64,000 bases of DNA from Candidatus Melainabacteria bacterium 17Bon1m. GTDB taxonomy: Bacteria; Cyanobacteriota; Vampirovibrionia; Obscuribacterales; Obscuribacteraceae. Numbering within the stretch: position 1 is the first letter of the stretch; each line of letters begins with the position of its first letter. The stretch is from the NCBI GenBank assembly GCA_032128875.1, contig JAVLKG010000016.1, positions 16,329 through 80,328 of the forward strand, written 5' to 3'. This document shows, piece by piece, positions 15,917 to 61,293 of this stretch. The translations under genes and the position numbers were made by a program. The notes below the pieces were generated by a model. That model worked only from the letters and a program-made list of their open reading frames with translations, was not told the origin of the DNA and made no database searches.

Positions 15917-16843
15917 ATGCATCCGCTGCTTAATCCCATGATGGTCGTGACCAACGTCGATCAAGTTTCGAAGTTCAAATTAACGGACTTCGAGACCCAC
16001 TTGGACCCAACAAAAGTTTTGATGTGTCCTCCAACATATTTCACTGTGGAATCAGTGGACAACCCATTTATGCAAGGTAATGTTGGAGCGGTTGATAAAG
16101 AGCTCGCCCAGAAGCAGTGGAATGATCTTAAAGCCGTGTACGAGTCTCTCGGCGTTGAAGTCAAAATTATCGAACCTGTAGAAGATCTCGAAGACATGGT
16201 TTTCGCGGCAAATCAGGTGCTTCCCGGCGCCTATCCGAATGGAAGACCATTCGTAATTCTCGGGGAAATGCGCAATGAGAAGAGAAACCAGGAAGTTCCG
16301 TGGTATCGCAAATGGTTCCAAGAAAACAACTATCACATAATCGATATATTTGATTCTAAGGACAATAAAAAGCACAGCCCCTGCTTTGAAGGACAGGGCG
16401 ATGCGATTTGGCATCCGGGCCGGAAGCTTCTCTATTGCGCGTTTGGACCTCGCACTGACGTAGAATCTGCGACGCTTTTGAACATGACACTAGTAAGTCC
16501 GGTCGTTCAATTGAAACTCGCAGATCCGCGCTTCTACCACCTCGACACTTGCTTTTTCGCGATCAATGAATGGACAGTAGCGATTTACGAAGGCGCCTTT
16601 GATGAACGAGGTCTAGCGCTAATCAGGCACTTCTTCAAGAACGTCATCTCGGTCAGCGAAAAGGAAGCATTGAACTTCGCTTTGAACGCAGTTGCGATCA
16701 AGGACGACATCATTTTGCAAAAAGGCTCTCCCGAGTTTGTCGCCGCGTTGAAGAAATACGGCTTCAACGCAATCGAAGTTGACACCAGCGAATTCATGAA
16801 ATCTGGCGGCAGCGTCTTCTGCATGAAGATGATGGTGTATTAG
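15917..16843 (+). CDS. Amidinotransferase/dimethylargininase (arginine deiminase superfamily) protein
   Basis: VLMCPP, DMVFAAN, FEGQGD, FYHLDTCF, GGSVFCM catalytic motifs. Confidence 0.92.
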   Translation: MHPLLNPMMVVTNVDQVSKFKLTDFETHLDPTKVLMCPPTYFTVESVDNPFMQGNVGAVDKELAQKQWNDLKAVYESLGVEVKIIEPVEDLEDMVFAANQVLPGAYPNGRPFVILGEMRNEKRNQEVPWYRKWFQENNYHIIDIFDSKDNKKHSPCFEGQGDAIWHPGRKLLYCAFGPRTDVESATLLNMTLVSPVVQLKLADPRFYHLDTCFFAINEWTVAIYEGAFDERGLALIRHFFKNVISVSEKEALNFALNAVAIKDDIILQKGSPEFVAALKKYGFNAIEVDTSEFMKSGGSVFCMKMMVY

Positions 16844-45902: not shown

Positions 45903-46030
45903 TGTAGGGACTACGAAAGCTTCGTTGTGCGAGCTTTTCTTGGTTGAGAACCATTCAAATCTGGTATGGTTCATTCGTAAGACGAACGCACCGAGCGCTC
46001 AACATAATCAATCGCCGTTGGGGAAAAGCA

Positions 46031-47242
46031 ATGCCTACAACTGACACGGATCTCGTGCTTCATTTGCCGGATGACATCAACTACGAATGCACTGGCTGCG
46101 GCAAGTGCTGCGGTGGGTGGTCCGTGCCAATGACGCAAGACGATTACGAGCGCATTTCAGCTGTCGATTGGAGTGAGTACGATAGTCGCTATCAAATGCA
46201 GGATTTGTTTCGTGAACTCAAGCCCTACGAATCAAGCGGTACTCCGTATGGCTACGCGATCAAAGAAGGTGGCGACGGACATTGCCCTTTCCTCAAAGAC
46301 AATCTTTGTTTCATTCACTCCAAGCACGGTTCAACATTCAAGCCTTCGATTTGCCAGTTGTTTCCTTACTGCTTCAACGAGACACCGAGCGGCATTTATG
46401 CGACCGTTAGTTTCGTAAGCATGGGTGTCGTCAACAATTCCGGCAAGCCATTGACCGAACAACGTGACTATCTGGAGAGCAAACTCAAAGAATTCAAAAC
46501 GCTTTTCCCCGATCACCATCCTAACTGGTCCAATCTGAAACTGGCTGTGGATAAGCCTCTTACCTGGGATGAGTATCTCGAAATCGAAAAGGAAATGCTT
46601 GCGATTTGGTCTGAGCGTGACAAGTCGCTCGATCTTCGCTTCCTCGCAATCTCGGACATGCTGCTCGAAAAATTCAAAGGAGTGCCCGTGGCACCGCCTT
46701 CCAGCGTGGGCCCTATGAAGAATGTAGATAAGCAATTACTAGTTGCTCTATATAAGATCTACTTCCCGCACAAAAAGCTAGGAAGAGGTGAAGGTGATTT
46801 CAATGCAGGTAGGTTCACCTATCAGATGATGTTCGAGGGTATCTTCCCCGGGCTGCGCCTGCGTTCGCCAACGAGGTCGTACAGTTTCGAAGAGCTCGAG
46901 AAAATCGATTTCCCCGAAGACAAGGACGTAGAGGACCTCATCTACCGCTACTTTCGCTCGCGCATCTTCGGCAAACTCTATTTCGGCGCCGGTTTTGGCC
47001 AATTGAGTCTGATCACCGGCTTTCACCATCTGCTTCTTACATATGTACTTCTAAAAGAGAATTCAAAGATAGTAGCCCTGTCGCGCGGAGCCAGTGTGCC
47101 TAGCTACTTAGACGTAGTTGTTGCCGTGCGCACTTTGGAAAAACGCCTGGGAGAAACATCCTTAGGCGGCTATGCAGCGGCGATTTTGGAACTGCTGCTC
47201 TTTAGTCCTGGACGAATGCGGCGGATTCTCACACATACCTAG
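46031..47242 (+). CDS. YkgJ/FliB-like cysteine-cluster protein
   Basis: CTGCGKCC, CPFLKDNLCFIH, KPSICQLFP; long helical C-terminus as in flagellin lysine methylase-like proteins. Confidence 0.8.
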   Translation: MPTTDTDLVLHLPDDINYECTGCGKCCGGWSVPMTQDDYERISAVDWSEYDSRYQMQDLFRELKPYESSGTPYGYAIKEGGDGHCPFLKDNLCFIHSKHGSTFKPSICQLFPYCFNETPSGIYATVSFVSMGVVNNSGKPLTEQRDYLESKLKEFKTLFPDHHPNWSNLKLAVDKPLTWDEYLEIEKEMLAIWSERDKSLDLRFLAISDMLLEKFKGVPVAPPSSVGPMKNVDKQLLVALYKIYFPHKKLGRGEGDFNAGRFTYQMMFEGIFPGLRLRSPTRSYSFEELEKIDFPEDKDVEDLIYRYFRSRIFGKLYFGAGFGQLSLITGFHHLLLTYVLLKENSKIVALSRGASVPSYLDVVVAVRTLEKRLGETSLGGYAAAILELLLFSPGRMRRILTHT

Positions 47243-47249
47243 AGCGGAG

Positions 47250-47340
47250 CGTGGGGGCGCGTTGCACGCGCCCGTTTGTGTCTTTGGTCGCATGCAATGC
47301 GACCCCACGATTGCCCGTTTGTGTCTTTGGACCCCACGAA
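47250..47340. repeat. REP cluster
   Basis: GTGGGGGCGCGTTGCACGCGCCC, GGTCGCATGCAATGCGACCCCAC and duplicated GCCCGTTTGTGTCTTTGG. Confidence 0.75.
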
Positions 47341-47481: not shown

Positions 47482-47573
47482 TTGACTTGCTTTGGTCTTT
47501 CTTGTAATCTACCCGCACTGATTCCAAGTGGTCGCGCTTTCTGCGACCAGTTTTTAAATTCACTTACTAAATT
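47482..47573 (+). promoter_or_regulatory. Pilin copy 1 promoter + 5'-UTR motif
   Basis: TTGACT-17-TAATCT (47482-47510); hairpin TGGTCGC-gctttct-GCGACCA; CTTACTAAATT at 47563. Confidence 0.75.
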
Positions 47574-47601
47574 TTGAATATAACTGGCAGGAGGTTCTCT
47601 A

Positions 47602-48114
47602 ATGATCCGTAAACTTACTATGTCTGCTCTCGTCGTCGTCGCCCTCGCAATGAACGTTCCAGCATTTGCGCAAGCCCAAGGCGATCAATTTCAATCCTCT
47701 GGAGATCAAGGTCAGATGGGCGATCAAGGGCTAGGTGGTAACACCGGTTCTCAAACCCGTCAAGAAATGGACAGCCAAGCACCGACATTGCAAGGTGCCA
47801 CCAACGGTACAATCGGACCACAAGGCTCTGATGCTACCTACATTACCGGCGTCAACACTGCAGGTACTGTACGTGTAAACAACTTGGCTAACTTGGAAGC
47901 CTTGCTCAACATCATCGCAAACGGTATGGAAATCCTCGGCATTGCATGGGGCGGACCTACAATGATCATGGGCTTCATGCACATGGCAGCCGGCACACAA
48001 GACGCAATGAAGAAAGTACTCTTCGGAGCCGCTGGTGTGACAGGCGGATTGGCAACACCCGGTTGCATCAACTGGCTCGTTGCTTCCGCAAGAGACGCCA
48101 ACTTGTTCAGCTAA
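47602..48114 (+). CDS. VirB2/TrbC-like pilin, copy 1
   Basis: Signal peptide ending AFA|Q, polar G/Q/T segment, two hydrophobic helices split by GTQDAMKK; GGAGG RBS. Confidence 0.7.
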   Translation: MIRKLTMSALVVVALAMNVPAFAQAQGDQFQSSGDQGQMGDQGLGGNTGSQTRQEMDSQAPTLQGATNGTIGPQGSDATYITGVNTAGTVRVNNLANLEALLNIIANGMEILGIAWGGPTMIMGFMHMAAGTQDAMKKVLFGAAGVTGGLATPGCINWLVASARDANLFS

Positions 48115-48150
48115 GACAAAGAATAACTGCCACGCAATCAGGCAATCAGT

Positions 48151-48178
48151 GGAAGGAGCCGCAAGGCTCCTTCCTTTT
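48151..48178 (+). terminator. Terminator of pilin copy 1
   Basis: GGAAGGAGCC-GCAA-GGCTCCTTCC-TTTT. Confidence 0.88.
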
Positions 48179-48226
48179 GCTATGTGAATGAGAACATGCC
48201 TTCGTTCCTTGAGGCATAATTGAGAA

Positions 48227-48670
48227 ATGAACTTTCAGAAGGCAGCTTTCTATTCATCCGTCGCTTTCACCGCAATGTCCAAAGGGTTGGGACTTGTGTT
48301 TTTTTCTGCAATTTCGTTTTTTGTGGCTCTGTGGGTAGTTTCGCTGATATTCTTTTCGAGCCCCGAGCGCCTTACCATTTTTGAGACTGTCTATTCACCT
48401 GATCGTAAGCTGAAAGCCGTTGTGTTTGGATATCAGTTTCGTCCTGATTTGAAGAATGTCTCCGTGCTGAGCGCTGCGGCAAGTCCTGAAATCAACAGAG
48501 ATGGAAATGTCTTCTCTGCGGCATGCAAACGCGCCAATGCTAAATGGAGAGACAATCAGAACCTTGTGATTCTTACCGACGGGGTGGTTGGTACAGCCAT
48601 CAAGTCGAAGAATTTCATTGCGTTCGATCGCGGAGTTGAAATTGATATTCGAGAACTAAAGGGAAAGTGA
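48227..48670 (+). CDS. Membrane-anchored beta-rich protein, paralog A
   Basis: N-terminal TM; SPDRKLKAVVF, NVSVL, GNVF, FIAFDR. Confidence 0.75.
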   Translation: MNFQKAAFYSSVAFTAMSKGLGLVFFSAISFFVALWVVSLIFFSSPERLTIFETVYSPDRKLKAVVFGYQFRPDLKNVSVLSAAASPEINRDGNVFSAACKRANAKWRDNQNLVILTDGVVGTAIKSKNFIAFDRGVEIDIRELKGK

Positions 48671-48671
48671 G

Positions 48672-49112
48672 ATGCATTCAACTTTGCCTGTAAGACCATC
48701 ACCAATCAAATTATTCATTGGATTCTTCATCGGACTTTCAGTTTTTTGGTCCTGGACATGGTTTTGGTCAGGTATTTTCAGCCTTAAGCCCGGGGAGATT
48801 CACCAAAGCATACAAAGGACTGTTATTTCCCCAGATCACAAGTTGAAGGCAGTAGTCTTTACCAACAAGCTCTCGCCAGAAGACGTCTCAATCAATGTGT
48901 CCATCCTCAAGGCGGACGCGAAAATGCGAGAGCAGAAATACGGAAATGTATTTTGCGATTGGGGTGCGCAATGGGCTGATGTGAGCTGGACTAGCAACAA
49001 CTCTATTTGCATTGCTCACACAAAAGGAACGAGCATAAGTTCTCGTAATCACTTCCGAGCATTCGATCGCGATATAGCTATTTCCGAGTTTGTGCCAAAA
49101 CCCTCTAAATAG
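48672..49112 (+). CDS. Membrane-anchored beta-rich protein, paralog B
   Basis: N-terminal TM; SPDHKLKAVVF, NVSIL, GNVF, FRAFDR. Confidence 0.75.
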   Translation: MHSTLPVRPSPIKLFIGFFIGLSVFWSWTWFWSGIFSLKPGEIHQSIQRTVISPDHKLKAVVFTNKLSPEDVSINVSILKADAKMREQKYGNVFCDWGAQWADVSWTSNNSICIAHTKGTSISSRNHFRAFDRDIAISEFVPKPSK

Positions 49113-49164
49113 TTTTCCGGAAAGCTGCCCCGCTTGTGTCACAGTTGAGATCTACTGTAATGAA

Positions 49165-49200
49165 GCTCACTTACGAGCAGCTGTAACCCTCTTACTAAAT
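49165..49200 (+). promoter_or_regulatory. Pilin copy 2 5'-UTR motif
   Basis: GCTC-acttac-GAGC then CTTACTAAAT at 49191; no clear -35/-10. Confidence 0.65.
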
Positions 49201-49230
49201 AGTTCTACAAATACTGAGTGAGGTAGAAAT

Positions 49231-49761
49231 ATGACTCGCCAACTTTTGCATCGCGCTTTTTCTTTTGCTGCAACTTCCGCAGTTTTGCTTGCACTTACCA
49301 CCGGCTCCCCCGTATTCGCCCAAGCGCAAGGTGACCAATTCGCATCTTCTGGTGACGCCGGCATGATGAGTTCTGATGCGCAAGGAAACACCGGTACGCA
49401 AACACGCCATGAGCAAGACTCCGGCTCCGTAATGCTGCAAGGCGCAACAAACGGAACAATCGGACCGCAAGGCTCGGACGCCACTTACATTACTGGAGTC
49501 AACACCGCAGGTACCGTGCGTGTGAACAACTTGGCCAACTTGGAAGCCTTGCTCAACATCGTCGCCAACGGTATGGAAATTCTCGGTATCGCGTGGGGCG
49601 GACCGACAATGATCTTCGGCTTCATGCACATGGCTGCCGGATCGCAGGATGCGATGAAGAAGGTGATGTTCGGCTGTGCGGGTGTGACCGGTGGATTAGC
49701 CACACCAGGTTGTATCAACTGGCTCGTCGCTTCTGCTCGCGATGCGAATCTGTTTAGCTAA
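49231..49761 (+). CDS. VirB2/TrbC-like pilin, copy 2
   Basis: Same core with a divergent N-terminal mature segment and an extra Cys (FGCAG). Confidence 0.7.
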   Translation: MTRQLLHRAFSFAATSAVLLALTTGSPVFAQAQGDQFASSGDAGMMSSDAQGNTGTQTRHEQDSGSVMLQGATNGTIGPQGSDATYITGVNTAGTVRVNNLANLEALLNIVANGMEILGIAWGGPTMIFGFMHMAAGSQDAMKKVMFGCAGVTGGLATPGCINWLVASARDANLFS

Positions 49762-49800
49762 TTGCCGGCTCACAACGAAACGAAAAAATGTAAAACAGCA

Positions 49801-49828
49801 GAAAGGAGCCGAAAGGCTCCTTTCAATT
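49801..49828 (+). terminator. Terminator of pilin copy 2
   Basis: GAAAGGAGCC-GAAA-GGCTCCTTTC. Confidence 0.8.
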
Positions 49829-49908
49829 ACTCGACTTTAGAGTGTTAACTAGTACCGGCTGATTCTGTTTCGTGCTGTAAGCGGAATGCAATCCTTTTCC
49901 ATACGCGC

Positions 49909-52275
49909 TCAGTCCCGGGCATGGAGCGCTGCTTCATGCTCTATCGTCGAAATAGCGGATGTCCAGGCGGACTCTGTGCCAGGCGCAACATCATTTCGCT
50001 GCAGTGCTGTTCTGATTTTGTTTGCGAAATTCGGATCGCCGAATTCATCGAAAGCCCAATCTTTTGCAAAGCTTGTGATTTCGTTTGGGTCCGTAAGATT
50101 TGCAAGCGCCGACTCGTCTGGCTTCAACAAGCCGAAAGTGGATGATCTGAACTTCCTCAAATCTCCGTTGTACGTGGTTGGTGAGGGATACACCGCGCGT
50201 TCGGATGGTGGCATCTCATTCAAAACCGTGCGCCAAACGTTGGCTGTTTCTTCGGGAATATTGTTGAAACTAATTACGCGTTCAATTTGATCTTGGAAGA
50301 TTGGACCTCTCCAATCATTTGCTATCAGGAAAGCCTCAATCTCATCAGGTTTCGTTAGGCTGACTGCTTTGCTGTAATCTCCAAAGGCAGCTTCGCTCAA
50401 TCTTGAATATTCATCATAGAGTTCTGCTGTTGGCTTACCAGCCTTCAGCTGCTCAAGAAGTTTGGGCAATATGAATTGGTCGATCTTGGTCAAGGCAGGA
50501 TTCGATATAGCTGTTTCGAGGCGAGTTGGTATTTGCGTTTCGAATTCGTCTGCAAGTGCGGCCCAAACTTCTTTTGTTTTCGGGTTAATGACGCCTTTGG
50601 TGATGTAATCTCTAATTTTTTCCGCCATGCGCAGTGGATTGTTTATTTGCTGGTTTGCGTACCGCGCGTATGCCGCGATCTCCGAAGGATCAGACAATGT
50701 TGTGTAAATGAATTCACGTGGGGTCACAAAGGCATTGTCTGCCAAAGATTGAATGCGCGGAAGTGCCTCAAGTCCGGCTTGCCTGATTGCCTCTGGGTCT
50801 GTCGAGAGAAGTGGTGGAAGTCCGTTCTCCGGCATCGAGTTGAGAGCTGTTCGCCAGGCATCCGCGGTTTCTGCCGGAATTTGATTGTTTGCAATTGCTG
50901 TCTCGATTTCATTGCGGAAGTTTGGAGCGGTTTCGCTATTACGAGCGACGAACGCTTTGATTTCGTCAGCTTGCGTGAATCCAAATGCCTTCTCTCTGGT
51001 AGCGTTAGAGGCACTGGCCATACGATCGAAATATGTTGTGATTTCTTCGGCGGTTTTGCCTGCTTTCAGATCGTCGAGCATTTTGGGGAGCACTGTCCGC
51101 TCAAAGTTTGGAAGCGTTCCATCTTGCAGTGAAGACTGCATGGTTTTCAAAGCCTTAGTTTCAAACTCTTTGGCGAGTTCAAGCCAAAGCCCCTTCTGAT
51201 TTGGATTTAAAACATTTCTTTCAGCCATAGACTGAATTTCGAAAACCATCCCCAGCGGATGGCTGCTCTTGTTGTTCATGTCGCGGGCGATTGCGACGAT
51301 GTCTTCCGGATTGTCGAGTGCCGAGTAGAGATACTCATATGCATTCATGTTCGCTTTGTCAGCCATCACCGCAGCGCGTGCCGTTGCTTCCTTTGCCGCT
51401 GCCTCGACGGCGTCAGTGGACATATCGGCTGCGAGGGCCGCCGCACCGTCGGCTGATACTGTTGTTGCACCTTCAGATGCGGTTGCCGCAGTTTTTGCTG
51501 CTACTGTTGCACCTTCCCCTGCGACTGTCGCGCTTTCCGCAGCAGCGGTTTTTGCTGCGATGTTTGCGGATGCTGTGTCGAATGCTTGTTTTACCGCACC
51601 GCCCATCTTGCCGTAGACAAAACCTCCACCAACTACGTCTGCAAAAAGGTTTACACCTCCGGCTCCAACTCCTCTTAGACCCTCATGCGCTTTTGCTACT
51701 TCTTCTGCAGAGTATTTAGATGCATTCCAGACTACTTCGCCATCCTTGATCCATTGAGGCATGTGTTCGGCAAGCGACCAACCTGTAAGACCGATTGCTC
51801 CGGCTGCAAGTCCAACCATTCCTGCGACTGGAAGCCATGCTGGAGCTGTTGCAATAATAGGCGCTGCTGCAATGCCTGCAATGCAAATACCAGCAGTTAT
51901 TGCCGCTCCTACTAGTAAGTGGGTTCCCCAGTCGAGCGGATTGGTGAGCTGCTGAATGCCACCACCTATGATGTCACCAGCAACTCCGAAAAATCCACCG
52001 TCTTGCTGTGGTGTTACTTGCGCTGCTTCTTTTGGCGCAGTGAGGTTGACGCTGCCTGGCTCGGAGCCAAGCGCCATCGCTAATTCTGCAACTTTCTTAT
52101 CTCTGGTTGAATCAACGAATTCTATATTATGTAGATCGGCAGTGTTCTCAGTGCTTGTGTATTTGCCTGCTTCCGATAGCGTTTGCAGGTAATCTTCATG
52201 AAGCTTGTGAGTAGTGCTTGTATCGTCTGTCTGTGCATAATTTGGAGCGAAGCTCTCAACGGGTTGGTAAGCCAT
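49909..52275 (-). CDS. Large hypothetical protein: hydrophobic hairpin, Ala/Thr linker, tandemly duplicated helical domain
   Basis: AAGGAG before ATG 52275; Gly/Ala-rich hydrophobic helices; ~200-aa internal duplication. Confidence 0.8.
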   Translation of the reverse strand: MAYQPVESFAPNYAQTDDTSTTHKLHEDYLQTLSEAGKYTSTENTADLHNIEFVDSTRDKKVAELAMALGSEPGSVNLTAPKEAAQVTPQQDGGFFGVAGDIIGGGIQQLTNPLDWGTHLLVGAAITAGICIAGIAAAPIIATAPAWLPVAGMVGLAAGAIGLTGWSLAEHMPQWIKDGEVVWNASKYSAEEVAKAHEGLRGVGAGGVNLFADVVGGGFVYGKMGGAVKQAFDTASANIAAKTAAAESATVAGEGATVAAKTAATASEGATTVSADGAAALAADMSTDAVEAAAKEATARAAVMADKANMNAYEYLYSALDNPEDIVAIARDMNNKSSHPLGMVFEIQSMAERNVLNPNQKGLWLELAKEFETKALKTMQSSLQDGTLPNFERTVLPKMLDDLKAGKTAEEITTYFDRMASASNATREKAFGFTQADEIKAFVARNSETAPNFRNEIETAIANNQIPAETADAWRTALNSMPENGLPPLLSTDPEAIRQAGLEALPRIQSLADNAFVTPREFIYTTLSDPSEIAAYARYANQQINNPLRMAEKIRDYITKGVINPKTKEVWAALADEFETQIPTRLETAISNPALTKIDQFILPKLLEQLKAGKPTAELYDEYSRLSEAAFGDYSKAVSLTKPDEIEAFLIANDWRGPIFQDQIERVISFNNIPEETANVWRTVLNEMPPSERAVYPSPTTYNGDLRKFRSSTFGLLKPDESALANLTDPNEITSFAKDWAFDEFGDPNFANKIRTALQRNDVAPGTESAWTSAISTIEHEAALHARD

Positions 52276-52745
52276 ACTTCTCCTTAGTAGCCGAAAGCCC
52301 GCCTTCAAGAGGCGTAGTTTGGCTTAGAATCGCAAAGGGGTGGGGCGGGCGCCGATAGCCATTAAAAGGGCTAACGAAGTGAATACTAACTGAGCTGCAT
52401 GACAATCGTTTGACGACGAAAGGTTGTCGGCAGAATTTGAATTTCTCGTCATTTCGACCAAAAATGAACTACGTGATCTACCTAATGAAGGTGATCAAAA
52501 ATGCGCAAAGATCGCTGTGATTTAGAGATTTTTGCGGGGTGGAAACATTGAATTTCGACGGGCTCGCAAGGAAGGCGAAAGGTACCTTTCGCGTGTTTGT
52601 AAAAGGATGCCGCGTGATATGCGGTTGAGAATCCGCATGAATACTGGATGTGATTAGAGCGTGAACAAAACCTTTCAACATTCAACCTTTCGCGAGAGTG
52701 TCAAAACCCGCATGAATAAAGATTTTGTAGGGCTGTCACAATCGC

Positions 52746-52821
52746 TTGACATTGGTTCTGCTTAGGAATACATTGCTAGCACGCTCACTTGGAGCGCCTT
52801 CACATTCAACCTTTACTAATT
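52746..52821 (+). promoter_or_regulatory. Pilin copy 3 promoter + 5'-UTR motif
   Basis: TTGACA-17-TACATT; CGCTC-acttg-GAGCG; TTTACTAATT at 52812. Confidence 0.75.
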
Positions 52822-52846
52822 AGGAATATTACTTGAGGAGGTAACT

Positions 52847-53380
52847 ATGCTTCGCTCCGCATCTCGTCGTCTGGCTACTTTGTGCCTTACTACCGCTTTT
52901 GTTGCAGGTCTCGCCCTCAACCTACCAGCTTTTGCGCAAGCGCAAGGTGATCAATTCCAATCCGCTGGAGATCAAGGTCAGCTGGGCGATCAAGGGCTAG
53001 GTGGTAACACTGGTGCCCAAACGCGTCACGAAATGGACAGCATGTCGCCGACCTTGCAAGGCGCGACAAACGGTACCATCGGACCGCAAGGCTCTGATGC
53101 GACATACATCACCGGCGTTAACACCGCAGGTACAGTGCGCGTAAACAACTTAGCTAACTTAGAAGCACTCCTCAACATCATTGCCAACGGGATGGAAATC
53201 CTCGGCATAGCATGGGGCGGACCTACCATGATCATGGGCTTCATGCACATGGCTGCCGGCACACAACAAGCGATGAAGAAAGTACTCTTCGGCGCTGCCG
53301 GTGTGACAGGCGGTCTCGCAACGCCTGGTTGCATCAACTGGCTCGTTGCATCCGCTCGCGATGCCAACTTGTTCAGCTAG
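52847..53380 (+). CDS. VirB2/TrbC-like pilin, copy 3
   Basis: Same architecture; GAGGAGG RBS. Confidence 0.7.
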   Translation: MLRSASRRLATLCLTTAFVAGLALNLPAFAQAQGDQFQSAGDQGQLGDQGLGGNTGAQTRHEMDSMSPTLQGATNGTIGPQGSDATYITGVNTAGTVRVNNLANLEALLNIIANGMEILGIAWGGPTMIMGFMHMAAGTQQAMKKVLFGAAGVTGGLATPGCINWLVASARDANLFS

Positions 53381-53481
53381 AACAAACTGCAGGGGAGGCA
53401 TATATGCCTCCTGTCAGGGAGCCGCATTCAGCTTCCTTACTTAGAAAGTACAACTCCACGCCAACCATAGTGAATCAGTTA

Positions 53482-53513
53482 GAAGGAGCCGGCCCCCGGC
53501 TCCTTTTATTTTT
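53482..53513 (+). terminator. Terminator of pilin copy 3
   Basis: AAGGAGCCGG-CCC-CCGGCTCCTT-TTATTTTT. Confidence 0.85.
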
Positions 53514-53626
53514 GTCTGCATTTTTTTGTATTGCCGCATTGTATGCGGCGTTTCGTTTTGCCTAGCTAATTCTGATTGTCGTTGTTTCGCTTTTTTGTGG
53601 AAACATCGACCTAGGGTTTTCGCTAA

Positions 53627-53700
53627 TTGACTTTGGGTGGCTCTGAGAATAATCTGCACACAAGCTCACTTTTAGAGCTTTTCGGAAACACTTACTAATT
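53627..53700 (+). promoter_or_regulatory. Pilin copy 4 promoter + 5'-UTR motif
   Basis: TTGACT-17-TAATCT; AAGCTC-actttta-GAGCTT; CTTACTAATT at 53691. Confidence 0.78.
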
Positions 53701-53730
53701 CTTTGAATTCACTCGGAAGGAGGTATTCTC

Positions 53731-54249
53731 ATGTTCCGCAAGCTAACCATGTCCGCCCTCGGACTATCAGTTCTTGCCGCATTCGCGCTCAACGCGCCAG
53801 CTTTCGCACAGGCTTACGGTGATCAATTCTCTTCATCTGGTAGCGAAGGTCAGTATTCATCTCAATATGAAGGAAACACGGGCACTCAAAGTTTGCACTA
53901 CAACGACAGTAACGCACCGACATTGCAAGGCGCTGCGCTTGGCACCATCGGACCACAAGGTGGCGATGCGACTTACATAACCGGCATCAACACTGCTGGT
54001 ACGGTACGTGTAAATAACTTAGCCAACTTAGAGGCACTGCTCAACATCATCGCCAACGGTATGGAGATCCTCGGCATTGCCTGGGGCGGACCAACCATGA
54101 TCATGGGCTTCATGCACATGGCGGCCGGAACACAAGACGCAATGAAGAAAGTTCTCTTCGGTTGCGCCGGTGTCACCGGTGGTCTCGCGACACCCGGTTG
54201 CATCAACTGGCTAGTTGCGTCCGCGCGTGATGCCAACCTGTTCAGCTAG
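53731..54249 (+). CDS. VirB2/TrbC-like pilin, copy 4
   Basis: Most divergent N-terminal segment (Tyr/Ser-rich), extra Cys; AAGGAGGT RBS. Confidence 0.7.
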   Translation: MFRKLTMSALGLSVLAAFALNAPAFAQAYGDQFSSSGSEGQYSSQYEGNTGTQSLHYNDSNAPTLQGAALGTIGPQGGDATYITGINTAGTVRVNNLANLEALLNIIANGMEILGIAWGGPTMIMGFMHMAAGTQDAMKKVLFGCAGVTGGLATPGCINWLVASARDANLFS

Positions 54250-54346
54250 AACGTAATGTAGGGACGACATTTATGCCGCCCACCATGTCGCCTCATGCGA
54301 CCAATAAGTTAGAAAACACATATCAGCCAGCCATAGTGAATCAGTC

Positions 54347-54379
54347 GGAAGGAGCAGAGATGCTCCTTCTGTTTTTATT
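54347..54379 (+). terminator. Terminator of pilin copy 4
   Basis: GGAAGGAGCA-GAGA-TGCTCCTTCT-GTTTTT. Confidence 0.88.
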
Positions 54380-54421
54380 CGTGAGTTAAATCGCATTTGA
54401 GTCGATTGTTTTTGCAATGAC

Positions 54422-55090
54422 CTACATGGTCTTCGTGGTCTTCTTCGCAACGAGATGCCGCGGAAGATTTACCAGTGCATACTTCGACTTCGGCCTCACT
54501 TTGCCTGCGACGAGCTTTGCAGCTTGCTTGTTTGCTTTTTGAGCTGCTCGAATATAATCGTTCGCAATCTTGAACTTTCCGTCATTCGCCGCTTCTACCG
54601 CCTTCTCAAGCCAGTTTCCAGAGCGCTTCATATTCTCCAGAGCCAGCGGCAATTCCGGGTGAACCTGATAGCCTGTCGCGCCCAACAGGAACCAACAGCT
54701 ATCGATACGCGCTGAGTTTTTGATGTTCCAAACTCGCGCTTCATCTTTCCACAGAGCTGTTCTTGTTTCGGACTTTCGTTGTTCTGCATCAGCATCATTT
54801 TGGATAGCCATCACCAATTTCTGCGTGCTATTGATGAAGGTTTGACACGACGCGATCGCGTCTGATACGCCCTCTTTTGTTGGACAACCTTCCCACTCAA
54901 TGCGACTGCATTCTGCTACCTTCTCGACCTCTGTTTTCGGCTTAATTGTGATGGTCCTGATGGGAGTGATTTCCTGCTTCTTGGGTTGCAGCAAATGTGC
55001 ATTAATTGACGCTTCCACGCAACCGATTAGGACGCAGAGAAAACAGTATTGATAGATAAAGCTCTCGGGTTTCCGGAAGTTGATTTTCAT
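54422..55090 (-). CDS. Hypothetical membrane-anchored helical protein
   Basis: ORF with one N-terminal hydrophobic segment; start ATG 55090 chosen. Confidence 0.55.
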   Translation of the reverse strand: MKINFRKPESFIYQYCFLCVLIGCVEASINAHLLQPKKQEITPIRTITIKPKTEVEKVAECSRIEWEGCPTKEGVSDAIASCQTFINSTQKLVMAIQNDADAEQRKSETRTALWKDEARVWNIKNSARIDSCWFLLGATGYQVHPELPLALENMKRSGNWLEKAVEAANDGKFKIANDYIRAAQKANKQAAKLVAGKVRPKSKYALVNLPRHLVAKKTTKTM

Positions 55091-55281
55091 GGATGCACCA
55101 AACCCTCGCCCTCGGAGTTGCCGAAAGGCACTCCTGAAGGCAGCAGACGCACGCACCGCGCCCGGCGATCTGTTGTTGATCGCTCTGCGCGTTGCTATAC
55201 CTTCAATCTAGCATTGCAATGTTTTGTGCTTGTAAAGAGAAGCGCAAGCAGCTATGAAATCAGTGCAAAAAAGTCGGACAA

Positions 55282-55455
55282 CTATTTCTTTGGAAACGCA
55301 AAAACCTTTGGTTTTGTGTCCTTTTGGGACGAGTGTTTATTTACGCACCTGATGCAAATTGCGATTTGGCTTCCTTCCTGTTTCTCGATTACAGGAAATG
55401 GTTTACTTCCAGGGATTGCTAAAACAGGTGAGCAGAAGTAGCATTCGGTTTTCAT
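55282..55455 (-). CDS. Small C4 zinc-finger protein (ClpX zinc-binding-domain-like)
   Basis: MKTECYFC...IAICIRCV, two CxxC pairs. Confidence 0.55.
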   Translation of the reverse strand: MKTECYFCSPVLAIPGSKPFPVIEKQEGSQIAICIRCVNKHSSQKDTKPKVFAFPKK

Positions 55456-55578
55456 AACAATATTGTTGGAACTGGCAAAGCGCATTTTGAACGCTTCAAT
55501 GTGCGTTTCGCAGATAACGGAGGAAACCTTCGGCTGTTTCGCAAAAGACGCACAGATTACTGTTGCTTTTCATGCGCG

Positions 55579-55890
55579 TCATCCTCCGGAAACTTCAGAA
55601 TCAATGACTTCGTAATCGAGACGTATCGCAGCTTGCTTTGCATATTCAAGCTCAACAATTTGATGAACAGTGCGCATATGACCCATCATAAAGAGTTCTT
55701 TGATTATCCGAACATCCGTAAGTTCGAGTTTTCCCGCAAGTTCTTTCACTGTGAGATTTTTTGTGAGCACGATTTTGCGCGGTTCTCCGTCTGGCGCCGC
55801 TCTACCAACGCGAGTTTTTCCACTGGGGCCATTTCCTCCGGAATCAGCCTGCGATGATTGCTTAAAGTGTTTTCGATTTGGCTTGTGCAC
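55579..55890 (-). CDS. Stand-alone translation initiation factor IF-2 N-terminal-like domain protein
   Basis: LTVKELAGKLELTDVRIIKELFMMGHMRTVHQIVELEYAKQAAIRLDYEV matches the IF2_N pattern; AAGGA upstream. Confidence 0.7.
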   Translation of the reverse strand: MHKPNRKHFKQSSQADSGGNGPSGKTRVGRAAPDGEPRKIVLTKNLTVKELAGKLELTDVRIIKELFMMGHMRTVHQIVELEYAKQAAIRLDYEVIDSEVSGG

Positions 55891-56039
55891 CTTAAACCAG
55901 CCTTTTCCTTTTGACGCCTCTAATATCAGTGTCTCATAAGAGGCGAAACATTGGACACTGGAAGGAAACTTGGACTGGAATGGGCATAAAAGCTCTCGTC
56001 GCAGGCACGCCTACAGGCTGATAACGTAAAGCGACGCGG

Positions 56040-57140
56040 ATGGTGTCAATGCCAGAGAAAAATCTGCAAGTATTGCTTTCCTCAATTAAGCCTAGACTGC
56101 GCGACGAGCAGTTTGTATTTTGCAGTGTCCTTGAGCGTGAGTTCAAAAAGCTGACCGTCAGCCCAATTTGTATCTTTCGAGAGGCTGAGGGTGTTTCCCT
56201 CATCGTCGAGAAATCCGATGCTGATTCGGCTTCTTTGAGGTACGACGGCACTTGGTCTTTGATCACTTGTGAGGTAAACTCTGACCTGAATGCCGTCGGC
56301 TTTATTGCGGCAATGTCTAAGATGATTTCTGATGCCGGGATTTCAGTAAACACTGTTTCAGCATTTCACCACGATCATTTATTTGTTCCATCTGATCGTG
56401 TCGAGGAGGTTATGCTCTTGCTTCAGGAACCACCAAAGAAACCCGTTCCAAAACGCGATCCGATCGAAAATATTCGCGAATTGATTCCCCTGATTTTTAG
56501 CGAACATCGTGCGCACAAAGCGTTGGGCTCACTGCTTTCGCAGGGACATGCATTGATCACGTCCAAGTTTGGCGAACCACTTCCGCCGGACATGCGAATC
56601 TTTTACGAACGCTGTTCTGACGTAAAAATCTTCGACCGCTATTCGATCTTGTCTTTGCAGAAAGCAATTGATGTTGATCGGTCGCAACTCCCTAAGAGTT
56701 GGTTTCCGTTTTGTGAATTGCCTTCTGGTAGCTTGATTGCAATTGATCTCAGCGAGCCTAACGGTGTTTATCCCATTATTGATCTCGATTGCGGTGACTT
56801 TGATTACATTGTGATCGCGCTGAGTTTTACTGAGTTTATCGACAAGATACTCGCAAATGGTCAAGATTCAAACTATTGGGTTGATCACAACGAGCAATAT
56901 GGCACAGCGAAAGTTCATTTGAAAAACTCTCAAGTTCGCAAAAAATATGAAGAATATTGGGATTCTCTCGGTCCGGAAAACGGCTCGCAGCGCTGCATGG
57001 CTGATGACTGTGAAAACAAGAACGTGAAACTAAGTGTCTTCTGCCGCCAGCATCAATTTGAACAAGTGCACAAGGTGACCTGCCCTTTCACCAGCGATGC
57101 ACCCGCAGATACGCTTGCTGAGTACGAGTTGAAGGAATAG
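56040..57140 (+). CDS. ACT-domain (DUF2241-like) / SMI1-KNR4 fusion protein
   Basis: FREAEGVSLI...SDLNAVGFIAAMS...SAFHHDHLFVP, then PLPPDMRIFYERC...IALSFTEFIDK. Confidence 0.75.
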   Translation: MVSMPEKNLQVLLSSIKPRLRDEQFVFCSVLEREFKKLTVSPICIFREAEGVSLIVEKSDADSASLRYDGTWSLITCEVNSDLNAVGFIAAMSKMISDAGISVNTVSAFHHDHLFVPSDRVEEVMLLLQEPPKKPVPKRDPIENIRELIPLIFSEHRAHKALGSLLSQGHALITSKFGEPLPPDMRIFYERCSDVKIFDRYSILSLQKAIDVDRSQLPKSWFPFCELPSGSLIAIDLSEPNGVYPIIDLDCGDFDYIVIALSFTEFIDKILANGQDSNYWVDHNEQYGTAKVHLKNSQVRKKYEEYWDSLGPENGSQRCMADDCENKNVKLSVFCRQHQFEQVHKVTCPFTSDAPADTLAEYELKE

Positions 57141-57172
57141 GAAATATTTCTTGTCTGTGTGCAGTCTGTCGC

Positions 57173-57352
57173 CTACTTTTCACGAGCTCTTTCTGCCATT
57201 TCATCAGCCTTGAACTTGAAATACAGCTGCTCTGCGTCAACCTGCTCTTGTCGCGTCGTTATCCAAACTGGAACTGTTAGAAAAAAGCCAATAACTGCAA
57301 GCAGAGCCAAAATCGTGAGTAGCAGTGCGATTCGAATCAGTTTTTCGCGCAT
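57173..57352 (-). CDS. Small single-TM protein (59 aa)
   Basis: Not in the ORF track; MREKLIRIALLLTILALLAVIGFFLTVPVW...AREK*. Confidence 0.5.
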   Translation of the reverse strand: MREKLIRIALLLTILALLAVIGFFLTVPVWITTRQEQVDAEQLYFKFKADEMAERAREK

Positions 57353-57402
57353 ATAGAGATTCCATAACCAACGTCGTTGCTTCTCTTCCAGTGCTATAGC
57401 TA

Positions 57403-57945
57403 TTATGCACTTGCGAACAATTTGCGTCTAAAAGCAAACACAGTCAGTACTATTAAGAGTGGAAAAGCAATCGCTTGAGGAGTTGCATCGTGTGAACTTG
57501 TATGTGCTTTGGGTTTGCTTGCAGGAACTGGTTCCATGCGCAGATTCCTTCCTTGCACTGACATTTCAGAGCTTGAAATTGTATAGAGCATGAAAGCGCC
57601 TGGTTGAATTAACGGATTCAATGGGGGACCGTACAGAGAGCGCGCGCACATTGTATTGTTGCCTTGCGTGAGTTTATCCGAACCCCCCTTTTCTGAGGGG
57701 GTCTCTATGCATTTGTCATCAACTTTAGGTGACTTAATAACTATTGCTGCGAGTCCCTCAGCAAATGAAATTTCATGCGTGCAACCTCGCGACGGATCAG
57801 GTTGCAGTACGAGAACGCTACAGAAAAAGCCCAGTGTGCACGATCGTACAGACGATGAATATTTGGGACAAGTAATGCTTTTTCGAGGCATATTTCTGAT
57901 GTGTTTTTCTGGAAGGTTTGGCTGTAATGCCGAATTTTTAAGCAC
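57403..57945 (-). CDS. Hypothetical protein with C-terminal TM anchor
   Basis: ORF overlapping the upstream gene; ends IAFPLLIVLTVFAFRRK; start uncertain. Confidence 0.5.
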   Translation of the reverse strand: MLKNSALQPNLPEKHIRNMPRKSITCPKYSSSVRSCTLGFFCSVLVLQPDPSRGCTHEISFAEGLAAIVIKSPKVDDKCIETPSEKGGSDKLTQGNNTMCARSLYGPPLNPLIQPGAFMLYTISSSEMSVQGRNLRMEPVPASKPKAHTSSHDATPQAIAFPLLIVLTVFAFRRKLFASA

Positions 57946-58285
57946 ACTTTTGATAGTGTCTTAGTCTTACAAAGAAGAATGGAATCAACCAGATCGTCGC
58001 AAAGAGGATAGCGAAAGTAGACGCATCAATAAAACCATGGCAGGGACGATGTCCAAGATGGACGCGTTTGCGTCCAGTTCCTCTGATTCCCTCCATTCTG
58101 AGGTCACCATCTCTCAGAACGATTAAGACGGTTTCGATTTTTTGCGGCGTTATTGACCGATTGTACTGTTCAACGTATTCCGGGTGCGAGAACCCGGACG
58201 CCAAGCCAAGTCCGAATGAGACAATGGTTGCCACTAAAGTTCCTTGGGACCAGTTATTCATCGGTTGTTTCACAAAATCTTTCAA
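57938..58285 (-). CDS. Small two-TM membrane protein
   Basis: Two hydrophobic segments; 4-bp overlap with the upstream gene. Confidence 0.55.
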   Translation of the reverse strand: MKDFVKQPMNNWSQGTLVATIVSFGLGLASGFSHPEYVEQYNRSITPQKIETVLIVLRDGDLRMEGIRGTGRKRVHLGHRPCHGFIDASTFAILFATIWLIPFFFVRLRHYQKCA

Positions 58286-58629
58286 AGCTGTTCGTGCGTT
58301 TGTGCGATGCCTGGCTGCGTGTGCGGCGCGAGCATCGCATCAGCAACTTGAATCGCCGCGAAGCCGACTGCACACACACCTAATAAGGTAAAAGCTGCGC
58401 GCTTGATGTTGCCTTTTGAGATAACTGTTCTTACTAAGAAGAAAATTGCGGCGAGCACTGTTGTGTAGACCATCGCCTGCAAGCCCATGACTGGGTTGTT
58501 TGGATTATGACCAACCGACTTTAGTACGTCGTACACGGCACTCGACACACCGCAGAAAATCGCGCAAGCAACCCATATCCGAATCCAATCCGGACTTTCC
58601 TTGGTGGTGGCATTGCGTGTGTGCGTCAT
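58282..58629 (-). CDS. Small three-TM membrane protein
   Basis: Three hydrophobic segments. Confidence 0.6.
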   Translation of the reverse strand: MTHTRNATTKESPDWIRIWVACAIFCGVSSAVYDVLKSVGHNPNNPVMGLQAMVYTTVLAAIFFLVRTVISKGNIKRAAFTLLGVCAVGFAAIQVADAMLAPHTQPGIAQTHEQL

Positions 58630-58757
58630 GTGAAGGTTCTCGCATTATCGATCGGAGTGTCGCATATAAAGGAAAGACTGTAATCAGTAGAAATCCCACG
58701 CAAAGCCAAACAGGTTGAGCGATTTGCGAAAATGTAGTCTGGACAACAATTCAGCTC

Positions 58758-58835
58758 TTGACTTCGTGCTGAGTTGCACTTAATCTGTAGACCGGTTCGC
58801 TTTTAGAGCCGATTTTGACCAAACCTTACTAAATT
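58758..58835 (+). promoter_or_regulatory. Pilin copy 5 promoter + 5'-UTR motif
   Basis: TTGACT-17-TAATCT; CGGTTC-gctttta-GAGCCG; CTTACTAAATT at 58825. Confidence 0.78.
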
Positions 58836-58867
58836 TCAAATCAAGCCTTCGTTGGAGGAGTTTGTAT

Positions 58868-59386
58868 ATGCGTAAAGCCAAAGCATTGGGTCTCGTCGCT
58901 GCTGTAGCCCTCGGCCTCGCCCTCAACGTACCTGCATTTGCACAAGCACAAGGCGATCAATTTCAATCCTCTGGAGATCAAGGTCAGATGGGCGATCAAG
59001 GGCTAGGTGGTAACACCGGTTCTCAAACCCGTCAAGAAATGGACAGCCAAGCACCGACATTGCAAGGTGCCACCAACGGTACAATCGGACCACAAGGCTC
59101 TGATGCTACCTACATTACCGGCGTCAACACTGCAGGTACTGTACGTGTAAACAACTTGGCTAACTTGGAAGCCTTGCTCAACATCATCGCAAACGGTATG
59201 GAAATCCTCGGCATTGCATGGGGCGGACCTACAATGATCATGGGCTTCATGCACATGGCAGCCGGCACACAAGACGCAATGAAGAAAGTACTCTTCGGAG
59301 CCGCTGGTGTGACAGGCGGATTGGCAACACCCGGTTGCATCAACTGGCTCGTTGCTTCCGCAAGAGACGCCAACCTGTTCAGCTAA
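58868..59386 (+). CDS. VirB2/TrbC-like pilin, copy 5
   Basis: Mature protein identical to copy 1, different signal peptide; GGAGGAG before ATG 58868. Confidence 0.7.
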   Translation: MRKAKALGLVAAVALGLALNVPAFAQAQGDQFQSSGDQGQMGDQGLGGNTGSQTRQEMDSQAPTLQGATNGTIGPQGSDATYITGVNTAGTVRVNNLANLEALLNIIANGMEILGIAWGGPTMIMGFMHMAAGTQDAMKKVLFGAAGVTGGLATPGCINWLVASARDANLFS

Positions 59387-59414
59387 CAAAGTTTTCCCCC
59401 GCCAACGCCAGCCA

Positions 59415-59439
59415 GAGACCTCCCGTAAGGGGGGTTTTT
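59415..59439 (+). terminator. Terminator of pilin copy 5
   Basis: GACCTCCC-GTAA-GGGGGGTT-TTT. Confidence 0.7.
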
Positions 59440-60288: not shown

Positions 60289-60522
60289 CGGGTGGCGTCG
60301 CCCCTACAGAAAGAGGGCGCCTGCAACGCGCCCCCACGCCGAGCTGTGTCGTCCGACCTAAAAGGGGCGCGTGCAACGCGCCCCCACGCCGAGCTGTGTC
60401 GCCCGACCTAAAAGGGGCGCGTGCAACGCGTCCCCACGCAGGGCTGTGTCGGCCGACCTAAAAAGGGCGCGCGCAACGCGACACCACGCTGTTAGGCTGG
60501 GCGATGCTTGGCATCTCGCCTA
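60289..60522. repeat. Tandem 50-bp REP-containing units (3 full + 1 partial), flanked by REPs
   Basis: AAAGGGGCGCGTGCAACGCGCCCCCACGCCGAGCTGTGTCGCCCGACCTA at 60311, 60361, 60411, partial at 60461. Confidence 0.9.
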
Positions 60523-61293
60523 TAGATCGGGGACCAGGTCTGGTTTTTCGTCGTTCAGTATCTCGTTGGCGACTTTGACAGAACACGGGGCGCTGGTAAT
60601 TGCAGTGATTACTTCATTGGCGCGCTTTTCTGTTTTGTTGCGGATGAGAGTTTCCATCAAATTCCATTGCCGCTGGGTTTCTCTCAAAGCAAGCTCCCGC
60701 GCCACTTTGTAATAAGTCGTGCCAGAAATCGTTTTTTTGCCTTCCGGTGAAGTTGGCGTGCTTTTGTCGAATCCCTCGAACTTGAGCAGCGTCCCAATCT
60801 TTGATTCTGTCCGCTGCATATCAGTCCAGTCAGCGAGGTCCATAGAGAACAAGTCATCTTTGAATTGATGCTCGCGAAGTTCAATGTAATTGGAGCGACT
60901 GTAAAAATCTTGCAGTGTATGTAATGCCTGTCCGAAGACGAAGAGCGCTCGGGCTCGAGTCTTTTCATCGGTATCTGCTGTGTGCGCAAAATTGAGCACT
61001 TTCTTCTTTTCTCTATCGGCAACGGCAATGCATTTTGTAATTTCGCCAGTTTTGAAATGGCGTCTCGGGTCGTTGGCTCCCTCTCCACCCGCAGAATCTG
61101 CAGCACTCACGCCTTTCAATATCAATTTCAGGTTGGCATCACAGATGGTGCCTTTGAGCGCTTCCATCGTCAACTGCTCGTGGATGTTGCCGGTTTCGTC
61201 GCTACCGAACGAATATGCGGCGGTCGCACATATTTGAGAAACGCCAGCCAAAACCAGAGAAATGGCGATGTTCTTCCTGAGCGCAAATTTCAT
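60520..61293 (-). CDS. Exported Het-C/zinc phospholipase C-like protein
   Basis: Signal peptide; IHEQLT, RRHF, GQALHTLQDFYSRSNY. Confidence 0.65.
   Translation of the reverse strand: MKFALRKNIAISLVLAGVSQICATAAYSFGSDETGNIHEQLTMEALKGTICDANLKLILKGVSAADSAGGEGANDPRRHFKTGEITKCIAVADREKKKVLNFAHTADTDEKTRARALFVFGQALHTLQDFYSRSNYIELREHQFKDDLFSMDLADWTDMQRTESKIGTLLKFEGFDKSTPTSPEGKKTISGTTYYKVARELALRETQRQWNLMETLIRNKTEKRANEVITAITSAPCSVKVANEILNDEKPDLVPDL

Follow-up and report, generated by a model that had tools for sequence, protein, structure and literature searches.

A lineage-restricted C-terminal hairpin domain in a five-gene array and in VIT/VWA proteins of Candidatus Obscuribacterales: a tentative anchoring or assembly module of the cell envelope

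A 64,000-nucleotide (nt) stretch of contig JAVLKG010000016.1 from Candidatus Melainabacteria bacterium 17Bon1m (positions 16,329 to 80,328 of the forward strand; hereafter the window) carries an array of five co-oriented genes for small, predicted exported membrane proteins that share a nearly invariant C-terminal core. Database comparisons place these proteins in an unannotated family that, as far as such searches can tell, is found only in Candidatus Obscuribacterales (Melainabacteria/Vampirovibrionia). The same comparisons show the C-terminal unit of ~110 amino acids (aa) to be a modular domain, which also ends several hundred large (600-1200 aa), predicted polytopic VIT/VWA membrane proteins of the same lineage. 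The reading tentatively favoured here, with rather less than even confidence, is that this unit is a self-associating, lineage-specific hairpin anchoring/assembly module and that the small proteins are abundant subunits of an envelope assembly. Obscuribacterales, a widespread group related to the cyanobacteria, are uncultured and their cell surface is almost undescribed; in this setting the family stands out by its apparent very high expression, its several copies per genome and a conservation comparable to that of the most constrained structural proteins, as well as by its absence from every protein family database and by a core common to adhesin-like VIT/VWA proteins. To learn what the family builds would be to characterise one of the main envelope components of this lineage, perhaps a new pilin-like polymer or a new C-terminal anchoring system, and the hairpin domain is a clean candidate for a new Pfam or NCBIfam model.

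The five genes, the predicted fold and its conservation

A preceding sequence-only reading of the window had listed five co-oriented paralogs starting at 47602, 49231, 52847, 53731 and 58868, and open reading frames (ORFs) with exactly these starts are present on the forward strand. The genes and, for gene 1, the parts of its product as delineated from the ORF list, the alignment and AlphaFold2 are as follows.

47602-48114, + strand: gene 1, 170 aa
residues 1-23 of gene 1: signal peptide
residues 24-62 of gene 1 (47671-47787): polar linker
residues 63-170 of gene 1 (47788-48111): core domain, with predicted helices 87-130 and 135-165
49231-49761, + strand: gene 2, 176 aa, the most divergent paralog
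52847-53380, + strand: gene 3, 177 aa
53731-54249, + strand: gene 4, 172 aa
58868-59386, + strand: gene 5, 172 aa, with an alternative TTG start at 58862

In a five-protein alignment the paralogs are 79-94% identical to gene 1, and the parts that had been described from the letters are all visible: the signal peptide ends in (A/V)FA↓QA in 5/5 paralogs, a polar stretch of ~38 residues varies among them, and the final ~106 residues, which end in TPGCINWLVASARDANLFS, are nearly invariant. Across the 106 core codons any two paralogs show 35-52 synonymous as against 1-8 non-synonymous differences, and the array is thus not a recent repeat, save for genes 1 and 5, which are the exception in lying 1 nt apart across the 318-nt core; to judge from this near-identity, gene 5 is a recent duplicate of gene 1. 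With that pair excepted, the high synonymous divergence rules out gene conversion or fresh duplication as the force behind the invariant core. Further, when the window is compared with its orthologs in the related loci L001 and L002, the core has non-synonymous divergence (dN) of 0.004-0.021 and synonymous divergence (dS) of 0.38-1.30, with dN/dS of ~0.006-0.03, rates from which the core is judged to be under extreme purifying selection. Among the ortholog linkers, those of genes 2 and 4 are constrained (dN 0.01-0.05), and those of genes 1 and 3 less so (dN ~0.2).

The layout originally proposed for these proteins, namely a signal peptide, a polar segment and two hydrophobic helices with a short basic loop, is confirmed by sequence and by AlphaFold2. 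The input for the model comprised 129 diverse sequences, including 128 of the 150 representatives of the family considered below, the other 22 being fragments or partial matches that were dropped; an earlier run on 13 near-identical sequences (predicted local distance difference test score, pLDDT, of 46) was discarded. The model (mean pLDDT 72) is a helical hairpin with helices spanning 87-130 and 135-165, a four-residue joint and a KK pair after the loop. Residues ~95-165 are predicted at pLDDT 95-98, and residues 18-86 at low confidence. Conservation, measured as the frequency of the commonest residue over the 129-sequence alignment, is distributed along the protein as follows.

residues 25-62, linker: 0.45
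residues 63-86, extracytoplasmic segment before the helices: 0.74
residues 87-109, amphipathic helix: 0.80
residues 110-130, first membrane helix: 0.40
residues 131-138, loop: 0.31
residues 139-158, second membrane helix: 0.51
residues 159-170, C-terminal tail: 0.82

Family-wide, therefore, the conservation sits in the extracytoplasmic segments and not in the membrane helices; in the small Obscuribacteraceae proteins the membrane helices are invariant too. As a separate observation on the core-opening motif, LQGATNG, a VWA-fused metagenomic protein of 488 aa (P0140) carries it twice, ~30 residues apart, a hint that it may be a unit separable from the rest, perhaps a site of recognition or processing.

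Searches of the family databases and of known structures returned little. None of the five proteins matched an NCBIfam model at E <= 10, the sorting-domain models included, and PHROGs gave nothing for three paralogs and four neighbours. Of two profile searches against the PDB, the first had no matches at E <= 10 and the second only claudin-19 (E 1.9), a chance match. Of the 163 matches (E <= 10) that Foldseek returned against the PDB, for which the bare hairpin is a weak query, none reached E <= 0.001; those to a chemoreceptor, to AhlB/SmhB/MakA and to GldL/PorL, all at E >= 1.1, were set aside as generic hairpins.

Family range and the modular C-terminal domain

A word-indexed search recovered 1022 clusters at 90% identity, all of them labelled 'hypothetical' and none with a precomputed Pfam domain. 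Where names are given, they are Candidatus Obscuribacterales or Melainabacteria, plus a few cyanobacterial labels of metagenome-assembled genomes (MAGs), which are probably mislabels. An exhaustive phmmer search over 1.84 billion representatives (50% identity) gave 548 matches at E <= 0.001, of which 341 reach E <= 1e-10, and a scan of the GTDB species genomes yielded 376 confirmed family matches. The best 80 of these 376, which lie in 56 loci, form the basis of all analyses of related loci given here; with the window, they make up 57 sources. Nearly all of the 56 loci are titled Obscuribacterales or Melainabacteria. Records titled Planktothrix sp., Actinobacteria bacterium or simply 'bacterium' (L013, L021, L003/L007/L010/L027) carry an Obscuribacterales-type locus, in L013 with the same flanking synteny, which suggests that these are mislabelled or mis-binned assemblies. 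No description of the family was found in the Obscuribacter/Melainabacteria literature or in that on exosortases and VIT proteins, although a text search cannot find a family by its sequence.

A hidden Markov model of the family detects 127 domain hits in the window and the 56 loci. Arrays of two to five co-oriented copies recur in many loci (five copies in L001, L002 and L008, four in ten others) and share one syntenic chromosomal site, at which the gene order runs HtrA, an IMPDH-like protein, AnmK, a CxxCxxCC protein, the array, a ThiF-like protein, a Het-C-like protein, RNase T/WYL and a TPR protein. The comparison of copy number among related genomes for which the sequence-only reading had called thus finds multi-copy arrays to be widespread at the same site, and the chromosomal location that it had proposed is confirmed; the array resides in a vertically inherited, syntenic housekeeping locus. 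The CxxCxxCC gene lies <= 2.5 kb upstream on the same strand in 23/40 evaluable loci, and ThiF lies downstream of the array in 17/43; the remaining loci are secondary sites. In L031 and L046 four copies follow one another in tight tandem, with no genes in between; the unrelated genes that separate the copies in the window are therefore insertions. A quick DNA tree was made from 58 copies of 18 of the 57 sources, taking in the multi-copy loci and some of the single-copy ones, with the rest omitted. In this tree genes 2, 3 and 4 have one-to-one orthologs in L001 and L002, with support of 99-100 in the Shimodaira-Hasegawa-like approximate likelihood ratio test (SH-aLRT), and in the deeper lineages L046, L031, L017 and L036 the copies group by genome. 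The latter pattern indicates that copy number was kept while the copies themselves were duplicated or homogenised lineage by lineage.

The position and company of the core reveal its modular nature. It lies <= 5 aa from the C-terminus in 143 of the 150 best representatives, and the bodies that precede it range from a 40-aa linker to VIT/VWA proteins of 1000 aa. Forms longer than 500 aa account for 67 of the 150, with the core C-terminal in 66 of the 67, and these mostly have 3-7 N-terminal hydrophobic segments in a Kyte-Doolittle scan. A Pfam scan of 13 long proteins found VIT in nine and VWA in two, and nothing in three. An NCBIfam scan covered 50 of the 67 long forms and matched half of them (25/50, the other 25/50 being without a match), always in the VIT region and always below the curated cut-offs. 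The models concerned are the XrtN-system VIT protein (TIGR04477; 24 proteins, three of which also matched MSEP-CTERM, TIGR04286) and the marine proteobacterial sortase target (TIGR03788; P0135 at E 8e-136 and P0215 at E 2e-122). Additionally, a region search that used the C-terminal end of one long protein as query retrieved 218 clusters of 601-1913 aa, the few named ones being Obscuribacterales, Melainabacteria or cyanobacterial MAGs. Where relatives of these proteins elsewhere end in LPXTG or PEP-CTERM-type signals, this lineage thus puts the ~110-aa hairpin domain.

On the reading favoured here, each small protein would be exported by Sec and cleaved after AFA to a protein of ~145 aa. This mature form would comprise a disordered Q/G/S/D/N/T-rich periplasmic tail, a conserved extracytoplasmic segment running into an Asn/Leu-rich amphipathic helix, and a membrane hairpin of two helices, whose short, basic loop would face the cytoplasm and whose conserved C-terminal tail would lie in the periplasm. 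Several strongly and separately transcribed genes would supply the small proteins in great abundance as the 'major subunit' form, and these proteins would build a homo- or hetero-oligomeric envelope assembly, be it a membrane-embedded array or an extruded fibre, which the VIT/VWA proteins could join via the same module. Such a logic parallels that of a major pilin and an adhesin-bearing minor pilin, here with neither demonstrable VirB2/TrbC homology nor an adjacent assembly machine. Modular or minor pilins and tip adhesins with a von Willebrand A module occur in Gram-positive and type IV pili, and there too one assembly module is common to a short subunit made in abundance and to a large, adhesin-like protein; unlike them, the array proteins have no type IV pilin homology, class III signal peptide or sortase motif, and the large hairpin-ended forms have polytopic N-terminal regions. 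The anchoring/assembly proposal accounts best for three features: the entire hairpin is nearly invariant in the small proteins, the arrays have a dosage-like character, and the domain exceeds its 'cargo' in conservation.

Several observations weigh against it. Across the 129 representatives the membrane helices and the loop are the least conserved parts (0.31-0.51, as against 0.74-0.82 in the extracytoplasmic segments), and a pattern of this kind suits recognition by a shared partner or enzyme no less than it suits tight packing of helices in a polymer. The polytopic N-terminal regions of the large forms argue against their extraction into a fibre. No conserved neighbour in the related loci resembles an assembly machine. 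The high abundance of the small proteins is inferred from sequence signals only, and the oligomer or filament is itself a proposal. A more specific version holds that the family belongs to a new lineage-specific envelope polymer/sorting system, in which a fibre or lattice is made by a machine unrelated to, or unrecognisably diverged from, the type IV secretion system (T4SS), with the VIT/VWA adhesins plugged in. This version is possible, if somewhat on the unlikely side; were it true, the family would represent a bacterial surface appendage, or a mechanism of protein anchoring, of a new class, which might serve attachment or predation.

The VIT/VWA proteins also bear on a different reading, in which the core serves in sorting or processing as a C-terminal domain of unusual size, analogous to LPXTG, PEP-CTERM and MSEP-CTERM: a membrane enzyme would read its conserved periplasmic motifs and cleave or transfer the cargo, and what the small proteins bring to the envelope or matrix would be short peptides of low complexity, perhaps glycosylated. 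Like the LPXTG, XrtN-system, MSEP-CTERM and PEP-CTERM signals, the hairpin domain is found at the very C-terminal end of exported or VIT/VWA proteins. Homology links the VIT/VWA bodies of the sortase/exosortase targets to those of the hairpin-ended proteins, and the domain replaces the sorting signal in the homologs of the marine sortase target, the XrtN-system and the MSEP-CTERM VIT proteins. The concentration of family-wide conservation in extracytoplasmic segments speaks for the sorting reading as well. As described for PEP-CTERM (PMC1569441), that signal follows a tripartite plan of a short motif, a single transmembrane helix and a terminal basic cluster; the order of motif, hydrophobic helix and basic residues in the hairpin domain echoes this plan, and the Ser/Thr/Asn-rich cargo is likewise reminiscent of what is described there. 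However, the tripartite plan as such is not seen here: the domain is ~110 aa long and has a second helix and, beyond it, a conserved tail of 12 residues, as compared with a motif, helix and basic tail of ~25 aa, making it four times longer than the known sorting domains. Further, it matches no known sorting-domain model, even at E <= 10 in NCBIfam, and the conservation of the supposed signal far exceeds that of the cargo in the small proteins, opposite to what is seen in known sorted proteins. Among the conserved neighbours of the array in the related loci there is no candidate enzyme, be it a sortase, exosortase or rhombosortase. On this balance a sorting function is doubtful, if still worth serious consideration.

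Two further readings dispense with both polymer and sorting. In the first, these would be ordinary abundant inner-membrane proteins without higher-order structure, acting as periplasmic spacers or tethers or as stress proteins, with the domain as a plain anchor. The fold is indeed a generic hairpin with only weak Foldseek matches to unrelated hairpins, and no machinery genes lie nearby; however, an anchor needs neither near-invariance over 106 residues (dN/dS ~0.01) nor extracytoplasmic motifs common to small and large proteins, and we consider this reading improbable. In the second, the small proteins would be secreted membrane-active peptides of a bacteriocin-, holin- or pore-former-like kind, with the neighbouring small membrane proteins as immunity factors. 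The weak top matches in Foldseek do include the insertion hairpins of alpha-pore-forming toxins (E 1.4-3.4), and two small membrane-protein paralogs follow gene 1. Yet these matches are not significant, PHROGs, Pfam and NCBIfam offer nothing of the sort, the small neighbours are present in only 7/57 sources, and extreme conservation across an order together with fusion to VIT/VWA is unlike what is seen in diversifying toxins; a toxin role is accordingly very improbable.

Relationship to the VirB2/TrbC pilins

The sequence-only reading had assigned the five proteins to the VirB2/TrbC pilins of the T4SS. If this were so, they would be true but very divergent pilins, polymerised by a machine encoded elsewhere, with the N-terminal tail on the pilus surface. 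Their layout and predicted topology fit: like VirB2/TrbC (PF04956) and the small conjugation proteins DUF2976, DUF4134, DUF3852 and T4SS_pilin (PF18895), they have a cleavable signal, two helices and a short basic loop, and as in VirB2/TrbC both termini are predicted to lie outside. Consistent with this, the nearest named clusters in a protein language-model atlas are all small conjugation-associated two-helix proteins, namely DUF2976, DUF4134, DUF3852, TrbC, T4SS_pilin, DUF6750 and Maff2, at scores of 0.80-0.85, which fall under the threshold of 0.9 and are leads only by the tool's own rating. DUF2976, DUF4134 and their like are presumably pilin-like parts of different conjugation systems. 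Moreover, Vampirovibrio chlorellavorus, from a sister order, is reported to encode T-type T4SSs (PMC4451040).

Profile comparisons nonetheless fail to sustain the assignment. TrbC, the one Pfam family to come up for the five proteins, scores E 0.085-2.8 (8.7-13.5 bits, against a cut-off of 27.9), with its best stretch at residues 3-40, that is, over the signal peptide and not the mature two-helix region, and it matches 4/38 family members at E <= 1. The profile-profile comparison by hhalign of the 38-sequence family alignment gave a probability of 0.4% against Agrobacterium VirB2 and of 0.2% against a 25-sequence VirB2 alignment, the latter representing only the Agrobacterium-type clade of that broad family. 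The PDB sequence searches returned no pilin, and no T4SS pilin is among the 50 Foldseek matches listed, the hairpin being so weak a query that similarity is still possible. Nor do these proteins resemble type IV pilins, as they have no class III signal peptide (G↓F/M-x-x-x-E); their signals are of the Sec type ending in AFA↓QA, and their hydrophobic helices are C-terminal.

The genomic setting was correctly described in that the array has no secretion machinery nearby. Pfam scans found no T4SS family among the 45 ORFs of the window, and blastp with nine Ti-plasmid (pTiC58) proteins (VirB1-6, TraG, TraF and TraB) against the ORFs of the window and the 56 loci, 866,654 nt around 57 loci in all, gave nothing below E 0.1. 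Further differences set the array proteins apart from VirB2/TrbC. They carry an N-terminal extension of ~70 residues, making the mature protein about twice the size usual for a pilin; they are encoded in chromosomal multi-copy arrays at a vertically inherited housekeeping locus, in place of a single gene in a T4SS operon; their conservation is concentrated outside the membrane; and their domain also ends polytopic VIT/VWA membrane proteins of 900-1200 aa. Taken together, membership in the VirB2/TrbC family is unlikely.

Expression signals and neighbouring genes

The control elements detected around the array genes are listed below.

47482..47510, + strand: promoter of gene 1, sigma-70-like, TTGACT-17-TAATCT
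52746..52774, + strand: promoter of gene 3, TTGACA-17-TACATT
53627..53655, + strand: promoter of gene 4, TTGACT-17-TAATCT
58758..58786, + strand: promoter of gene 5, TTGACT-17-TAATCT
48151..48174, + strand: intrinsic terminator of gene 1, hairpin and T-run
53480..53508, + strand: intrinsic terminator of gene 3, hairpin and T-run
54346..54371, + strand: intrinsic terminator of gene 4, hairpin and T-run
59419..59434, + strand: intrinsic terminator of gene 5, hairpin and T-run
49801..49824, no strand assigned: hairpin between the convergent gene 2 and the gene for a 799-aa protein, with a T-run on the minus strand only

The pattern TTGACN-17-TANNNT occurs just four times on both strands of the window, in each case before an array gene, 101-120 nt 5' of genes 1, 3, 4 and 5. 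The same search found no consensus promoter belonging to gene 2, and its one-to-one orthologs in L001 and L002 likewise have none; upstream of gene 2 there are a TTACTAA box at 49192 and a GAGGT ribosome site. The other four starts are preceded at 8-14 nt by AGGAG/GGAGG. As the T-run of the hairpin at 49801-49824 is on the opposite strand only, this element belongs to the 799-aa gene as its terminator and is a bare hairpin for gene 2. Hence the earlier claim that each gene is its own transcription unit, with a ribosome site and a terminator, holds in full for four genes and in part for the fifth: ribosome sites precede 5/5, and a promoter and a canonical terminator accompany 4/5, gene 2 lacking both. 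In the related loci, a promoter census could use 110 of the 118 strong family copies, those with an assignable start and 230 nt upstream. It found TTGACN-16..18-TANNNT at -93..-143 in 84/110, with gene 2 and its orthologs among the 26/110 without it; across the family the hexamers are kept and the spacers differ.

The suggestion of a variant-switching filament does not survive, since no inverted repeats suitable for inversion were found around the array promoters and four of the genes each have their own promoter. The lack of such repeats rules out switching by an invertible promoter or by silent cassettes. A perfect 18-nt direct repeat (47270-47287 and 47313-47330, starts 43 nt apart) does lie between the CxxCxxCC gene and the promoter of gene 1.

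The promoters are followed by leaders of ~65-100 nt (47511-47601, 52775-52846, 53656-53730 and 58787-58867 in the window, with homologs in L001-L056), which across the related loci have a median predicted length of 79 nt and mostly open with a short hairpin whose stem sequence varies among copies. Their first 40 nt have a mean minimum free energy (MFE) of -7.2 kcal/mol, as compared with -4.7 kcal/mol for dinucleotide shuffles, and 66% of leaders against 33% of the shuffles reach -6 or lower. A T-rich run follows the hairpin in 21/79 distinct leaders, and a TTACTAA box lies ~37-45 nt ahead of the start in 63/110 copies. The 5' leader may be an mRNA-stabilising or attenuating element.

The conserved upstream neighbour of the array is the following gene.

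45944..47242, + strand: CxxCxxCC (PF03692) protein, identified by Pfam/NCBIfam

This protein matches the flagellin lysine-N-methylase FliB below threshold, with 49 bits where the cut-off is 85 (E 4.6e-13). Separately, the hairpin loop of the array proteins carries two invariant lysines. That the CxxCxxCC protein might modify the array proteins is pure speculation, the whole region being syntenic anyway.

Several other genes lie within or near the array. Gene 1 is followed by tandem paralogs of 147 and 146 aa (48227-48670 and 48672-49112, + strand), each with an N-terminal hydrophobic helix and with no family in Pfam, NCBIfam or PHROGs; it is relatives of these that recur inside the array in 7/57 sources. 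The 799-aa protein convergent on gene 2 (49909-52308, - strand) is hydrophobic and Gly/Ala-rich in one region and Ala-rich in another stretch, and contains two long internal repeats; it has no family match and has relatives in four sources. Inserted between array copies is a gene (56040-57140, + strand) that joins two ACT domains to a SUKH/SMI1-KNR4 domain, an unusual combination that is present in six sources; SUKH is a family of immunity proteins. Every core is overlain by a long antisense ORF on the minus strand (for instance 49195-49629 and 53026-53367), and such ORFs are found in 37-38 sources; in all likelihood they are not genes but reflect how extremely the sense strand is conserved. 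Farther away, a short stretch of the ORF at 3080-4153 (+ strand), residues 283-318 only, matches the Pfam family of the anthrax lethal factor (ATLF) domain (E 1.9e-6), a match that probably does no more than mark a zinc-metalloprotease motif. Finally, just downstream of the array, a Het-C/VWA7_N-like protein (60520-61293, - strand; E 4.5e-8) is found in 17 sources; VWA7_N is named for its place N-terminal to VWA in the VWA7 proteins, which is curious given the VWA-fused relatives of the core.

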